Shown here in pieces: positions 1 through 4,346 of a stretch of DNA of 4,346 nucleotides. The position numbers were made by a program, and so were the translations under genes. The notes under the pieces are model-generated. The model made no database searches. It was not told where the DNA came from and saw only the letters and a list, made by a program, of their open reading frames with translations. The stretch comes from a virus (Duplodnaviria > Heunggongvirae > Uroviricota > Caudoviricetes). How positions within the stretch are numbered: the stretch's first letter is position 1; every line of letters begins with the position of its first letter. Location of the stretch: the IMG/VR virus record IMGVR_UViG_2700989363_000004. The stretch is one strand, 5' to 3'.

Positions 1-215
1 TCCGGATCGCTGAAAAACAGGCTGAGCACGGTGTACGTCAGCCCGGAAAAGTGCATATCCAGCAGAACATCATGAAAATAATGGGTACTGTAAAAGCGGT
101 GCCAGTCGGCATACTCCGTGGATGACATCCCGGCAAGCATGGCACGCCAGTCGGGTCGCCCCATCTCACGCGCCAGTTTCAGGGCAAAACTCAACTCACC
201 GTCGAACGCTTTCCC
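1..215 (-). CDS. T: T-frame portion of the tail assembly chaperone G-T fusion (lambda gpT-like); partial, continues beyond the window start
   Basis: Hand translation of the minus strand in the -1 frame relative to G, starting at the GGGAAAG heptamer, gives an open frame with no stop down to position 1: GK/AFDGELSFALKLAREMGRPDWRAMLAGMSSTEYADWHRFYSTHYFHDVLLDMHFSGLTYTVLSLFFSDP. This matches my memory of lambda gpT. There is no ATG of its own near the 5' end, as expected for a product made only by frameshifting from G. Not in the ORF track because it lacks a start codon. Confidence 0.85.
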
Positions 216-613
216 GCAGAAACAGGCTCTGCAGGCCCGGCGTCCTCTGCCTGTTCAGGAGCATCATTCACCACAAACTCATACATACCGGACAGCCGGT
301 ACACCACGTTTTCAGCATGAGAAATTGCCTCCGTGGGCCAGGTGGTAAGCACTTCCTGCTCAATCTGTTTAACGGCTTCATTCATGGAAGGCAGCTTTGT
401 CTTCTGCGGATGGTTATGCCACAGGGACATCGCCACCACAAAAGCGCCGGTTCTGATGGCGTCTTCCACAGTAAACTTCCGGTTGCTGTCTGACTCCGCC
501 TGTTCTGCCTGTCGTTTCATCAGGGCGAGATGCTCAATACGCTGCAGGGCTGACAGTTCAGAAAGCGTGACGGTCACACCGTTATGTTCAAATGATTCGG
601 TTTTCAGGAACAT
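191..613 (-). CDS. G: Tail assembly chaperone gpG
   Basis: 140-aa ORF (MFLKTESFEHNGVTVTLSELSALQRIEHLALMKRQAEQ...SAGKRSTVS) is near-identical to lambda gpG as I recall it. ATG at 611..613 (plus cat) is preceded by a GGAGAG Shine-Dalgarno. TGA stop at 191..193. Contains the frameshift heptamer near its 3' end. Confidence 0.95.
   Translation of the reverse strand: MFLKTESFEHNGVTVTLSELSALQRIEHLALMKRQAEQAESDSNRKFTVEDAIRTGAFVVAMSLWHNHPQKTKLPSMNEAVKQIEQEVLTTWPTEAISHAENVVYRLSGMYEFVVNDAPEQAEDAGPAEPVSAGKRSTVS
209..215 (-). other. -1 programmed ribosomal frameshift slippery heptamer G GGA AAG (G to GT recoding site)
   Basis: Plus-strand ctttccc at 209..215 is GGGAAAG on the minus strand. In the G reading frame it reads G GGA AAG, which is the known lambda G-T slip site. 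It lies 6 codons before the G stop codon (191..193), and the -1 frame stays open for the rest of the window. Confidence 0.85.
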
Positions 614-628
614 CGCTGACTCTCCGGA

Positions 629-1369
629 TTAACTGCCGGTGACGGTGATTTCTGCAACCGCAGCAAGTTCACCATTACCGGATACAACCGGAATGTTGAC
701 CTTGCCTGCAGCAACACCTTTCACGGTGATGGTCATACCACTGACCGACACGGTGGCTTTTGTTTTATCCGCAGACACCGCACGGAAGCTCTTGTCGGTT
801 GCGCCCTCCGGCTGGAATGCCACGGTCAGCGTGATGCTCCGCCCTTTCACCACCGAAGTGCTGGCAGGCGTCACGGTCATGCCGGTTGCCGCTGTTACCG
901 TGCTGCGATCTTCTGCCATCGACGGACGTCCCACGTTGGTGACTTTCACCGTGCGGGTGATCACTTCCTTCGCCGTCACCGCCTTACCGATACTGCTGAC
1001 CCAGCCGCGGAACACATCGACCGTGCCGTTCGGGAAGCGGATTTTATAGGCACGGGTATCCCCTTTATTAAACCACGCCAGCAGCGCCTGCTGCCCCTGC
1101 TCTCCGGGCATCCACGCCAGCGTGAAGATGGTATCTCCGGCAGATTTCTGCCCCTGCCCGGTCGCAGTCCAGTCCGCATTTTCATCATCGAGATAGCTGT
1201 CGTCATAGGACTCAGCGGTCAGTTCGCCGGGCGTCAGGTCTTTAACCTTTGCCAGACGCGACCAGTCATTGTCTGAAAGCGGGTTTGCATAAGGGTCGCC
1301 GCTCCCGTTATAAACCCACAGTGTGGTCCCGGCCCCTTTCACCGGTGCCAGAGGATTTGGTGTTGGCAT
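629..1369 (-). CDS. V: Major tail tube protein gpV (N-terminal tube domain plus C-terminal Ig-like domain)
   Basis: Translation [33 protein letters not shown]...[24 protein letters not shown] (246 aa) matches lambda gpV. Start chosen at ATG 1367..1369 (plus cat), preceded by GAGGA; the track ORF starting at 1399 would overlap the U coding region. TAA stop at 629..631. Confidence 0.95.
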
Positions 1370-1376
1370 ATCGTCC

Positions 1377-1772
1377 TCACATTTCATAGGTAATGACATA
1401 AGTCAGATCGGCTGAACTCCACAGGCCCGCATCATCGTCGCGCCGGTAGTCATAGCCGCTGGCCACCATACTGGTGATCAAATCTGACAGTGCCGGGATA
1501 TCACTCATCACCGGATAAATCCGGGACTCCATCCACGCATCCAGCTCTGAATCCGGCACCTGAGCAGGCAGGAAAACTTCAATATGCAGCTCTGCCTGCC
1601 AGGTATCGCTGTCCAGCTCTTCGCCCGTGTATTCAGCGCCAGTGAGATAAACGGCAATTGCCGGAAAATCCGCCTCATCAAAAACAGCGGGGCGACCATC
1701 AAAAAGCGTCGCCCCGGTGTCATGCTTCTCCAGTGCATCCAGTACGGCTGCACGGAGTTCAGTATGTTTCAT
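1377..1772 (-). CDS. U: Tail terminator protein gpU
   Basis: 131-aa [72 protein letters not shown]...LTYVITYEM is near-identical to lambda gpU. Its ATG (1770..1772) overlaps the Z stop TGA (1769..1771) in an ATGA arrangement. TGA stop at 1377..1379. Confidence 0.95.
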
Positions 1773-2344
1773 CGCTTTATTACCATTCTCAGTTGATGCT
1801 TCAGCGCATAGCTCAGTTCTTTTGGCAGACGTTCTCGCCGGATACGGTTAACGTTCTCATCAAAAGCCTGTTTCAGTGGGACCGCCATCGGAATTTTCAC
1901 CACCTGAATGGGAAGACGATTACGCTTTTTCCTTCCCTTATCGTCAGTGCCCTTCGCATACCGTGCTTCTGGCAGACGTTGCATAACATGCCAGCGTCCA
2001 TTATTTAATCGCTGGATGAATGCCCGCTGATAACGATGCTGACCGGCTTTGAGTATGCTGTTCGGGCGATGACCAAGCATCCTGATCCCCAGCTTAATAG
2101 CAGGGAGATCACCTCGGTTAACGATAATTTTTGCATTCGGATTTCTGACCGTAGCTCGTTTCAGTCTGGATCGCTCTTTAACCAGTTTTCTCGGCACCCG
2201 GGTTTCACGGGCGACCTGAGACGAAGACTGATTAATCGCCGTTGCGGCCACGCGGTTAATGGCCATTGCTGACGCACTAGGCACCGCCGTTTTGCTGATA
2301 CGGCTGAGGTTTTCAACGGCCTGCTCAAGACCTTTTATGGCCAT
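1769..2344 (-). CDS. Z: Tail completion protein gpZ
   Basis: 191-aa ORF. The N-terminus (MAIKGLEQAVENLSRISKTAVP) and C-terminus (WHVMQR...VVKIPMAVPL...[23 protein letters not shown]) match lambda gpZ as I recall it; the central region is more divergent. ATG at 2342..2344 is preceded by a G-rich Shine-Dalgarno (AAGGGGGG). Position between FII and U fits lambda synteny. Confidence 0.9.
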   Translation of the reverse strand: MAIKGLEQAVENLSRISKTAVPSASAMAINRVAATAINQSSSQVARETRVPRKLVKERSRLKRATVRNPNAKIIVNRGDLPAIKLGIRMLGHRPNSILKAGQHRYQRAFIQRLNNGRWHVMQRLPEARYAKGTDDKGRKKRNRLPIQVVKIPMAVPLKQAFDENVNRIRRERLPKELSYALKHQLRMVIKR

Positions 2345-2355
2345 ACACCCCCCTT

Positions 2356-2709
2356 TCAGCGACGACGGTTAACGGCAGGCGGTACGCCCCGTCCAAGCCA
2401 GAGATGACAGCTTCCGCCATCATCCGGCGTAACCCGATCTACCCAGAAGTTTTCCTCACCGATGGTCAGCGTGTCTCCGCGCCGCAGCTGCCGCACATCA
2501 TCAGTCCGGACAAACAGGGACGGGCTGGAGCCTTCAACGCGCACGCCCTGTCCGGCATAGCTGATATTTTCAGGGTCATCAAAAACACCACGTATCACAG
2601 CACCGGACTGCTCACCGGATGTCATGGTGGCTGACGTTCCCATGTACCCGCGTATCGTTTCATCGGCGCGGGCAATAGCAGCATCGAACAGGTTATCGAA
2701 ATCAGCCAC
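2356..2709 (-). CDS. FII: Head-tail joining protein gpFII
   Basis: 117-aa ORF MADFDNLFDAAIARADETIRGYMGTSATMTSGEQSGAVIRGVFDDPENISYAGQGVRVEGSSPSLFVRTDDVRQLRRGDTLTIGEENFWVDRVTPDDGGSCHLWLGRGVPPAVNRRR is near-identical to lambda gpFII. The initiation codon read from the sequence is GTG (plus cac at 2707..2709), preceded by GGGAGG (complement of 2714..2719). TGA stop at 2356..2358. Confidence 0.93.
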   Translation of the reverse strand: MADFDNLFDAAIARADETIRGYMGTSATMTSGEQSGAVIRGVFDDPENISYAGQGVRVEGSSPSLFVRTDDVRQLRRGDTLTIGEENFWVDRVTPDDGGSCHLWLGRGVPPAVNRRR

Positions 2710-2720
2710 AGCGCCTCCCG

Positions 2721-3107
2721 TTATTGCATTCTGGCCAGGCCACGCTCTGTCATTTCAGCTGCCACACCGGCAGAGACACGAAACGCCGTTCCCGGCAGCA
2801 CAAATGCCACAGGTTCATCCCGCGTGGCGTGAAGTGCATCAGTATGCAGCGTCACCAGTGCCACAACCGTGACCAGATCAGCCGTATCAGTCACGGTATC
2901 CGGCTGCGCTGATACCACCTCATTTTCATGTCCGGTCAGCGCATTTTCCGGGCTGATAGGGGTATCCTGATCGGCAGTGTCATCAAGCTCCTCTTCCAGC
3001 TCTGCCACACGGAGCGCCAGTTCTTCTTTCGTTCCCGTCAAACTGACATCGCGGTTCAGTTGCTCACCCAGCTCCTGAAGACGGGCAATCAGTTCATCTT
3101 TCGTCAT
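2721..3107 (-). CDS. FI: DNA packaging / head assembly accessory protein gpFI
   Basis: Translation MTKDELIARLQELGEQLNRDVSLTGTKEELALRVAELEEELDD...HTDALHATRDEPVAFVLPGTAFRVSAGVAAEMTERGLARMQ matches lambda gpFI at both termini, with a divergent acidic linker in the middle. Start chosen at ATG 3105..3107, preceded by a strong GGAGGAG Shine-Dalgarno (complement of 3112..3118); the longer track ORF from 3146 would start inside the upstream hairpin. TAA stop at 2721..2723. Confidence 0.9.
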   Translation of the reverse strand: MTKDELIARLQELGEQLNRDVSLTGTKEELALRVAELEEELDDTADQDTPISPENALTGHENEVVSAQPDTVTDTADLVTVVALVTLHTDALHATRDEPVAFVLPGTAFRVSAGVAAEMTERGLARMQ

Positions 3108-3148: not shown

Positions 3149-4174
3149 TTACGCCAGTTGTACAGACACGAACTCATCAGGGTCAGCCAGCAGCATCAGC
3201 GGTGCTGACTGAATCATGGTGAACTCACGCGCCGGATCGCCGGATGTCTTCCAGTTTTTCGGATAACGGGGAGACGCATTAATACCCTCACTCAATGCAT
3301 CCGCATCCTGAATGCAGCCATAGGTGCGCAGACCGCGTGCATGAGTGTTACCCAGCACCATCGTGTTGTCCGGCAGGAAGTTCTTTTTGACGCCGTTTTC
3401 CACGTACTGTCCGGAATACACGACGATGGCCACATCGCCATACATTCCCTTATAAGACACCGCTTTGCCCAGGTCTTTCACCGCTGTCTCCAGCTCGGAA
3501 TGAGAGCCGCGACGGGTATCCAGCTTATCCTTGACGGCCTTGAAGGAACGGAACAGCGCCCAGCCTTTCGGATCAAACACGATGATATTCACCACACCGC
3601 TGGCGTTCAGCGCGTAGGCTTCGATATCGTCGGTCGGGTCATACGTGGACTTGTCACGCTTGCTCCACGCCGTGCCGCCGGACTGCGTGATGTTGTTGGC
3701 CGCACTGCGGCCCATATCCACCTCAACCGGATCGAAGGCTTCACCGGTCATGGTGTATTTGCCCTTAAGCACGGCAGAAACTGCCTGCATCTCTTCCACC
3801 TGGGCAATGGCCAACTCTTCGTCACGCATGTTCTGCATGATGATGCGACGGCGACGGTAAGCCGGGTCCGCCAGATTCTGCGGATCTTCATCCGGCAGGC
3901 GACGCAGGGTCATCTGCGGATTCACTTCATGCTTGGGTTTGACATATCCCGGCGTAAATTCAGAGGTGGAGCCGCCACGGGAACGGATAACCTCACCGGA
4001 AACAATCGGCGAAACGTACAGCGCCATGTTTACCAGTCCAGGAATTTGTGAGAGATAGACTTTCTCTGTAGTGAAGGGATAGCTCTCACGGAAAAAGAGA
4101 CGCAGAAACAGCGGATCAAACTTAAATTTCTGCTCATTTGCCGCCAGCAGCTGGGCGGTTGTGTACATCGACAT
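3149..4174 (-). CDS. E: Major capsid protein gpE (HK97-fold)
   Basis: Translation MSMYTTAQLLAANEQKFKFDPLFLRLFFRESYPFTTEKVYLSQIPGLVNMALYVSPIVSGEVIRSRGG...TMIQSAPLMLLADPDEFVSVQLA (341 aa) is essentially lambda gpE. Start chosen at ATG 4172..4174 (MSMY...); the track ORF extends 9 codons further upstream (MRLFLRDFF) into the intergenic hairpin. TAA stop at 3149..3151. Confidence 0.97.
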   Translation of the reverse strand: MSMYTTAQLLAANEQKFKFDPLFLRLFFRESYPFTTEKVYLSQIPGLVNMALYVSPIVSGEVIRSRGGSTSEFTPGYVKPKHEVNPQMTLRRLPDEDPQNLADPAYRRRRIIMQNMRDEELAIAQVEEMQAVSAVLKGKYTMTGEAFDPVEVDMGRSAANNITQSGGTAWSKRDKSTYDPTDDIEAYALNASGVVNIIVFDPKGWALFRSFKAVKDKLDTRRGSHSELETAVKDLGKAVSYKGMYGDVAIVVYSGQYVENGVKKNFLPDNTMVLGNTHARGLRTYGCIQDADALSEGINASPRYPKNWKTSGDPAREFTMIQSAPLMLLADPDEFVSVQLA

Positions 4175-4187
4175 AAAAAAATCCCGT

Positions 4188-4213
4188 AAAAAAAGCCGCA
4201 CAGGCGGCCTTTA
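4188..4213 (-). terminator. Intrinsic-terminator-shaped hairpin between D and E (GC stem followed by U7 on the transcript)
   Basis: The minus-strand transcript reads AAAG-GCCGC-CUGU-GCGGC-UUUUUUU: a 5-bp GC stem (plus 4195..4199 pairing with 4204..4208), a 4-nt loop, and seven U residues (plus A-run 4188..4194). The flanking A and U tracts could extend the stem. It sits between the D stop (4230..4232) and the E start (4174). Confidence 0.5.
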
Positions 4214-4229
4214 GTGATGAAGGGTAAGC

Positions 4230-4346
4230 TTAAACGATGCTGATTGCCGTTCCGGCAAACGCGGTCCGTTTTTTCGTCTCGTCGCTGGCAGCCTCCGGCC
4301 AGAGCACATCCTCATAACGGAACGTGCCGGACTTGTAGAACGTCAG
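4230..4346 (-). CDS. D: Head decoration protein gpD, C-terminal 38 codons (partial; the 5' end lies beyond the window end)
   Basis: Hand translation of the minus strand from 4346 gives [38 protein letters not shown] followed by TAA (plus tta at 4230..4232), which matches the C-terminus of lambda gpD. Not in the ORF track because the start codon is outside the window. Confidence 0.9.

Follow-up and report, generated by a model that had tools for sequence, protein, structure and literature searches.

Does the tail gene region of this caudoviricete genome (IMG/VR record IMGVR_UViG_2700989363_000004) encode one tail assembly chaperone, G, or two, with the second made as a G-T fusion through a programmed -1 ribosomal frameshift as in phage lambda? 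The window, by which we mean the whole stretch of DNA that was analysed (4,346 nucleotides), ends within the putative second half of such a fusion, and position numbers below are those of the window unless another record is named. In lambda, the frameshift occurs at G_GGA_AAG, where the zero frame is kept in about 96% of cases and about 4% shift (PMC3296357; PMC7618472). The fusion is made at a few percent of the level of G, and both proteins are needed in the right ratio for tails to form (PMC3296357; PMC5009743). For the demonstration in lambda, PMC3296357 and PMC5009743 cite Levin, Hendrix, and Casjens (1993).

The site in the window is almost certainly a programmed -1 frameshift of a lambda-type tail chaperone pair, in a lambdoid phage or prophage of Escherichia coli or a close relative. 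The present analysis establishes the site, its frame, the open -1 frame, the homology of both halves of the fusion, the synteny, and the conservation of the site in divergent relatives.

The slip site and the reading frames that cross it

The features on which the argument turns lie at the low-numbered end of the window:

209..215, minus strand: slippery heptamer GGGAAAG, read G GGA AAG in the G frame (X XXY YYZ), predicted site of the -1 shift
191..613, minus strand: gene G, tail assembly chaperone gpG (140 aa) by match to TIGR01674 and PF06894, with its TGA stop at 193..191
3..215, minus strand: first 71 codons of the T frame, which is -1 with respect to G and is truncated by the window edge (TIGR01715, PF06223)
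191..215, minus strand: stretch that codes in both frames, between the slip site and the G stop, GKRSTVS-stop in the zero frame and GKAFDGEL in the -1 frame

GGGAAAG occurs a single time in the window, at 209..215 of the minus strand. Base 215 is the third base of G codon 133 (GCG), and the zero frame G GGA AAG specifies Gly134 and Lys135. Across the site, this frame runs GCG GGA AAG CGT TCG ACG GTG AGT TGA, in which the TGA at 193..191 is the sixth codon after AAG, with CGT TCG ACG GTG AGT between them. Read from position 215 (GGG AAA GCG ...), the -1 frame has 71 stop-free codons down to the window edge, with the translation GKAFDGELSFALKLAREMGRPDWRAMLAGMSSTEYADWHRFYSTHYFHDVLLDMHFSGLTYTVLSLFFSDP. 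This frame is already open from position 254, which corresponds to position 6447 of L002, the E. coli MS 196-1 prophage sequence described in the next section.

Both halves of the putative fusion have clear family assignments. The 140-aa ORF scores 213.8 bits against the TIGR01674 (phage_lambda_G) profile, which has a cut-off of 74.45, and 197.9 bits against PF06894; by these profile matches, it is a gpG equivalog. The motif ggagag, located 8 nt ahead of the ATG of G, is read as its putative Shine-Dalgarno site. The 71 T-frame residues inside the window score 115 bits against TIGR01715 (cut-off 77.35) and 31.7 bits against PF06223, and the full-length T-frame product scores 185.5 bits against TIGR01715. 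When the -1 translation was aligned to lambda gpT, 68 of the 68 aligned residues were identical. As judged from this homology, the -1 frame product is a gpT equivalog.

The genes upstream of G are also those expected of a lambda-type locus:

4174..3149, minus strand: E, major capsid protein (PF03864)
3107..2721, minus strand: FI (PF14000)
2709..2356, minus strand: FII (PF05354)
2344..1769, minus strand: Z (PF06763)
1772..1377, minus strand: U (PF06141)
629..1369, minus strand: V, major tail tube protein with a C-terminal Ig-like domain (PF16461, 232.9 bits; PF02368, 68.6 bits)

All long ORFs of the window are on the minus strand, and all seven genes are intact and full-length, with strong family matches. 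Their order, E-FI-FII-Z-U-V-G-T(-H), is that of lambda, with window genes E to G corresponding to lambda 6135 to 10133, and V adjoins G upstream, marking the V-G-T-H synteny. A prior reading of the window, made from its letters and ORFs alone (hereafter, the sequence-only reading), had proposed the classic lambda G/GT arrangement: GGGAAAG read as G GGA AAG in the G frame at 209..215 of the minus strand, six codons ahead of the G stop, followed by a gpT-like -1 frame open to the window edge. The ORF coordinates and the codon count agree with the proposed position, frame, distance, and open run, and the arrangement as a whole is upheld by the two equivalog assignments, a heptamer identical to that of lambda, and the synteny. 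Lack of similarity to gpT-family proteins, which that reading had named as a result that would speak against it, is at odds with the 68 identical residues.

In its overall composition, the window is 94-95% identical to many lambda-like phages, and 3699 of the 5426 complete E. coli genomes contain related DNA, with a median of two places per genome. The best whole-window matches reach 96.2% in E. coli genomes and 95.3% in phages. Because identity over the whole window exceeds about 96% in no record, we regard the window, on the strength of these comparisons, as a fresh mosaic of common lambdoid alleles. Within gene Z, megablast aligned the central part (about 1912-2088, minus strand) with neither lambda nor the MS 196-1 prophage, although the flanks of this part are 94-99% identical. 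The Z protein is 65% identical to lambda Z, with indel-rich segments at residues about 87-105 and 123-141, and the same mosaic allele of Z is also found in phage 2B8.

The heptamer on its own carries no statistical weight: 0.63 copies are expected per window, and at least one copy was present in 96 of 200 shuffled sequences. We therefore dropped its mere presence as evidence and used statistics of its context instead. In the 1305 codons of the seven genes of the window, only two X XXY YYZ motifs are in frame. The other one, AAACCCG (A AAC CCG; gene V codons 28-29, window 1280-1286, minus strand), has no recoding potential, because its -1 frame closes after 6 codons. GGGAAAG is the only one of the two that precedes a long -1 ORF. 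Across the seven genes, open runs in the -1 frame have a mean of 11 codons, and the next longest is 39 codons, against at least 71 codons within the window, and 159 in the full locus, for the run at the slip site. The context of the heptamer is not due to chance, because a rare in-frame motif coincides with an exceptionally long -1 open run.

The site in an identical prophage and in divergent relatives

Because whole-window matches reach only 96.2%, we used as a proxy for the sequence past position 1 a prophage of E. coli MS 196-1 (NZ_CP146681; L002) that is 100% identical to the window over positions 1-700. In this prophage, the -1 frame runs for 146 codons, counted from GGG, and terminates in ATGGCTGA, so that its end and the beginning of the tape-measure gene overlap. 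Specifically, the end of T reads ...GGTATGGCTGA, and the ATG therein starts an 853-aa tape measure protein (PF06791, PF09718). The fusion predicted from the proxy consists of G residues 1-135 followed by 144 T-frame residues, or 279 aa in total, which equals the value that we computed for lambda; past G residue 135, it continues AFDGELSFALKLAREMGRPDW... Further along the same prophage (L002 10561-12700), the genes that follow L are on the opposite strand and encode a ClpP-like protease, two Arc-family repressors, and an Ant antirepressor. The K-I-J genes, which would be expected after L, are absent from that position.

We extended the comparison to 80 relatives from IMG/VR, which represent 59 distinct G..T nucleotide sequences. 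All 80 share the same heptamer, whereas nearby sites vary. The T frame has 146 codons in 79 of the 80, its TGGCTGA end is present in all 80, and in these relatives T ends in ATGGCTGA where the PF06791/PF09718 protein starts. The sequence-only reading had anticipated a -1 frame of about 140 codons with a stop at a tape measure gene, and the 146 codons and the overlap in the proxy conform to this expectation; an early -1 stop past the window edge, which it had raised as evidence to the contrary, is absent from every relative examined. The retention of the heptamer and of a 146-codon T frame in 79 of the 80 relatives, despite 59 different sequences, indicates that the lineage has remained under continuing purifying selection.

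This pattern bears on the possibility that the site is intact but belongs to the remnant of a defective prophage, in which the frameshift would have no present-day function. Many of the lambda-like copies in E. coli are expected to be defective prophages, and the abundance of related sequences (3699 genomes, with a median of two places per genome) fits this explanation, as does the replacement of K-I-J by the ClpP, Arc, and Ant genes after L in the closest prophage. Against it stand the seven intact, full-length genes of the window and the heptamer and T frame maintained across the 59 distinct sequences. We consider a defective origin unlikely, and the question concerns the activity of the element: its answer would not change the identity of the site.

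The placement of the slip site is also conserved far outside the close relatives. In addition to the near-identical sequences, we examined eleven phage loci whose G proteins range from 85% down to 27% identity to the G of the window; the wider alignments and the consensus folds compared 13 G/T loci. In all 13, a heptamer of the form N NNA AAG is found at the same aligned position of the G frame, near the end of G. It is GGGAAAG in ev099 and in the Stx2a and PhiR5_1 types, AAAAAAG in two of the Stx phages, and GGAAAAG in HK225, LLS, mEp043, Fels-1, Ayreon, and Gifsy-1. The -1 ORF that follows each site has 115-154 codons, compared to just 9-70 open codons in the +1 frame around the G stop. Moreover, conservation of T-frame amino acids starts at the slip site, with the pattern GK[AV][FL]..EL.F...LARE. 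In the record of phage LLS (L088), the depositors marked a -1 programmed frameshift at the same site and joined the CDS across it.

The T proteins of these phages also differ in their C-terminal parts. Lambda-type T has two copies of the motif LM..A.G[IL].GGVR[FY]G (L002 6760-6926, past the window edge). The T proteins of the N15/HK225, Stx2d, Fels-1, and Gifsy-1 types have one copy and are about 30 residues shorter. The pair of motifs looks like an internal duplication, and it would lie in the part of the protein that lambda studies assign to binding of the major tail protein.

Stimulatory RNA elements and the start of T

Frameshift sites can be accompanied by RNA elements, and we looked for such elements on both sides of the heptamer. 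No Shine-Dalgarno-like stimulator (GGAGG or AGGAG-like, at a spacing of ~10 nt) was found in the 30 nt upstream of the heptamer, ggacgccgggcctgcagagcctgtttctgc. An Rfam scan of the window returned no frameshift element. Its sole match was a sub-threshold one to the Hfq-binding sRNA isrK at 4189-4259 of the minus strand, in the intergenic region between D and E and the beginning of E; with a score of 19.3 bits (gathering score 50; E = 0.55), this match is most likely due to chance. Downstream, a single-sequence fold at the site is somewhat more stable than those of shuffled sequences (z = -2.77); however, its first helix pairs the heptamer itself, and its next strong hairpin does not start until 38 nt past the heptamer. 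Folding the 13 G/T loci together gave a weak consensus (-16.2 kcal/mol, with a covariation term of -0.84). Taken over the single fold, the consensus fold, and pair counts with controls at the 13 loci, no canonical, closely spaced, covarying downstream structure was found, such as the stable stem-loop or pseudoknot that starts about 5-9 nt past the slippery site in dnaX-like signals.

The hairpin that begins at +38 was considered separately:

144..171, minus strand: imperfect 9-bp hairpin, 38-65 nt downstream of the heptamer, in a stretch that reads CTGGCGCGTGAG...GACTGGCG, with the hairpin itself GGCGCGUGAG...GACUGGCGUGCC

Its positions are 94% paired across the 13 G/T loci, some of which have a highly divergent G, and the stretch is conserved at the nucleotide level in loci where the identity of G to that of the window is only 27-45%; several synonymous sites in it are invariant. 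On one reading, the stretch would be a long-range RNA element, not recognised so far, by which the G:GT ratio is tuned. However, 6 of the 9 pairs are the same at every locus, and the helix lies over the conserved LAREMGRPDWR codons, because of which the hairpin is indistinguishable from constraint at the protein level. We regard its role as a regulatory RNA element as decidedly improbable.

The same downstream region contains a codon from which T might be translated independently:

162..164, minus strand: in-frame ATG at T-frame codon 18 after the slip site, with which RefSeq/PGAP begins a free-standing 129-aa 'tail assembly protein T'

If this ATG were used, T would be an ordinary separate gene of 129 aa and the heptamer would be incidental. 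Such a gene is indeed called by PGAP in the identical prophage (WP_021573252.1, L002 6537..6926), and a free-standing T is annotated in several phage records. However, the methionine at 164..162 is a phenylalanine in 6 of the 13 G/T loci, whereas the 17 residues upstream of it (GK[AV][FL]..EL.F...LARE) are conserved all the way back to the slip site, and the TIGR01715 match begins at residue 7, ahead of the methionine. In addition, the ATG has no suitably spaced Shine-Dalgarno site, just a GAG that abuts it, and the T starts differ from record to record, which makes them look like gene-caller artefacts. Because the methionine is not conserved and the conservation reaches the slip site, an independent start of T is disfavoured: the ATG at 164..162 is probably not a real T start, and a separate T gene is very unlikely. 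In 1993, Levin et al. reportedly found that lambda T lacks a start and depends on the frameshift alone for its expression. Maynard et al. state that expression of gpGT depends on frameshifting at the slippery sequence (PMC3296357). By analogy with lambda, the T frame of the window would be translated only as the C-terminal part of a G-T fusion. The sequence-only reading had held that T has no initiation codon of its own. Taken literally, this does not stand, since an in-frame ATG is present at 164..162; what holds is that this ATG is not a conserved start.

The lambda RefSeq record places the start of T elsewhere, at a GTG directly after the heptamer. That start is likewise disfavoured, because the same codon is GCG in the window. 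Annotation of T is thus inconsistent across public records (window 162-164, minus strand; L002 6537-6926; L001 4416-4850), and among the records examined, a joined frameshift CDS is present in that of phage LLS only. The further claim that ordinary ORF calling misses the recoding event is borne out by RefSeq/PGAP, which calls a free-standing T and not a join.

A G-T fusion might also arise by slippage of RNA polymerase rather than of the ribosome. Productive slippage of RNA polymerase needs much longer homopolymer runs, and the only runs at the site are G3 and A3. Although transcriptional slippage is an alternative route to such fusions in some systems (PMC5009743; PMC4256274), the three-base runs make it unlikely here, as does the dependence of the lambda G:GT ratio on modification of tRNA-Lys at U34 (PMC3296357), a response that points to a ribosomal event, and we give this explanation next to no credence.

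Proposed decoding and comparison with known systems

For the preferred reading, a programmed -1 ribosomal frameshift, the slippage, its rate, and the roles of the chaperones are those that experiments in lambda would lead one to expect. Most ribosomes would read GGA-AAG, add five codons, and stop, releasing gpG (140 aa). A minority, about 4% in lambda, would slip back by one base while tRNA-Gly is on GGA and tRNA-Lys is on AAG. The tRNA-Gly would re-pair with GGG and the tRNA-Lys (mnm5s2UUU) with AAA, and the ribosome would go on in the T frame. The shifted product would be the 279-aa fusion of G residues 1-135 with the T-frame residues. The G part of both proteins may then coat the tape measure protein gpH, and the T part of the rare fusion may recruit gpV.

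This scheme follows what has been reported for lambda: the tape measure protein is a partner of gpG and of the G part of gpGT, whereas the T part attaches to the major tail protein and sets off the polymerisation of the latter (PMC5009743; PMC4493119). The lambda G:GT ratio, which is about 30:1, is crucial, and neither protein is found in the virion (PMC5009743; PMC4493119). Loss of thiolation at U34 of tRNA-Lys leads to more shifting and to a lower phage yield (PMC3296357; PMC7618472).

As a discovery, the site carries little weight, the event being known from lambda: it was described in that phage in 1993, and its conservation across long-tailed phages was shown in 2004. The window contains a new allele of this textbook recoding site, which is already known. 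Its practical value is in annotation, where the true second product would be the 279-aa G-T fusion made through a -1 shift at 215..209, a join that automatic pipelines still miss.

The closest known system is lambda itself (NC_001416 9711-10549), with whose G, at 9711-10133, the G of the window aligns. The two share the heptamer, its frame, its location at codons 134-135 of 140, and its distance to the stop, as well as the in-window T sequence after the third residue (68 of 68), the 279-aa length of the fusion, the V-G-T-H synteny, and, in the relatives of the window, the ATGGCTGA overlap with H. They differ by about 18 nucleotide substitutions scattered across G and T. One of these changes the codon after the heptamer, which is CGT (GCG in the -1 frame) in the window and TGT (GTG) in lambda; as a result, gpG ends in ...GKRSTVS here and in ...GKCSTVS in lambda, and GT continues as ...GKAFDG here and as ...GKVFDG in lambda. 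A few other G residues also differ (for example, KTKLPS here and KTQMPS in lambda). The base that follows the heptamer is a C here and a U in lambda, and this difference might set the G:GT ratio at a slightly different value from that of lambda. Overall, the sequence comparison identifies the copy in the window as an allele of the lambda system and not as a different system.

Somewhat more distant are the N15/HK225/Gifsy/Fels type (GGAAAAG) and the Stx-phage type (AAAAAAG). Their G and T are homologous to those of the window, and their slip position is the same. As in the window, A AAG at the A-site is invariant and the -1 ORF runs into the tape measure gene. They differ from the window in the first three bases of the heptamer and in T, which has 115-119 codons and one copy of LM..A.GI.GGVRYG, compared to the two copies here.

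A functional parallel outside phage tails is provided by dnaX of E. coli (A AAA AAG). Both sites involve a -1 slip on the lysine codon AAG, which is read by the single E. coli tRNA-Lys (UUU). The dnaX site has an upstream Shine-Dalgarno-like element and a close downstream hairpin, operates at about 50% efficiency, and yields a shortened product. By comparison, the site in the window would be expected to shift at a rate of a few percent, and its product would be extended.
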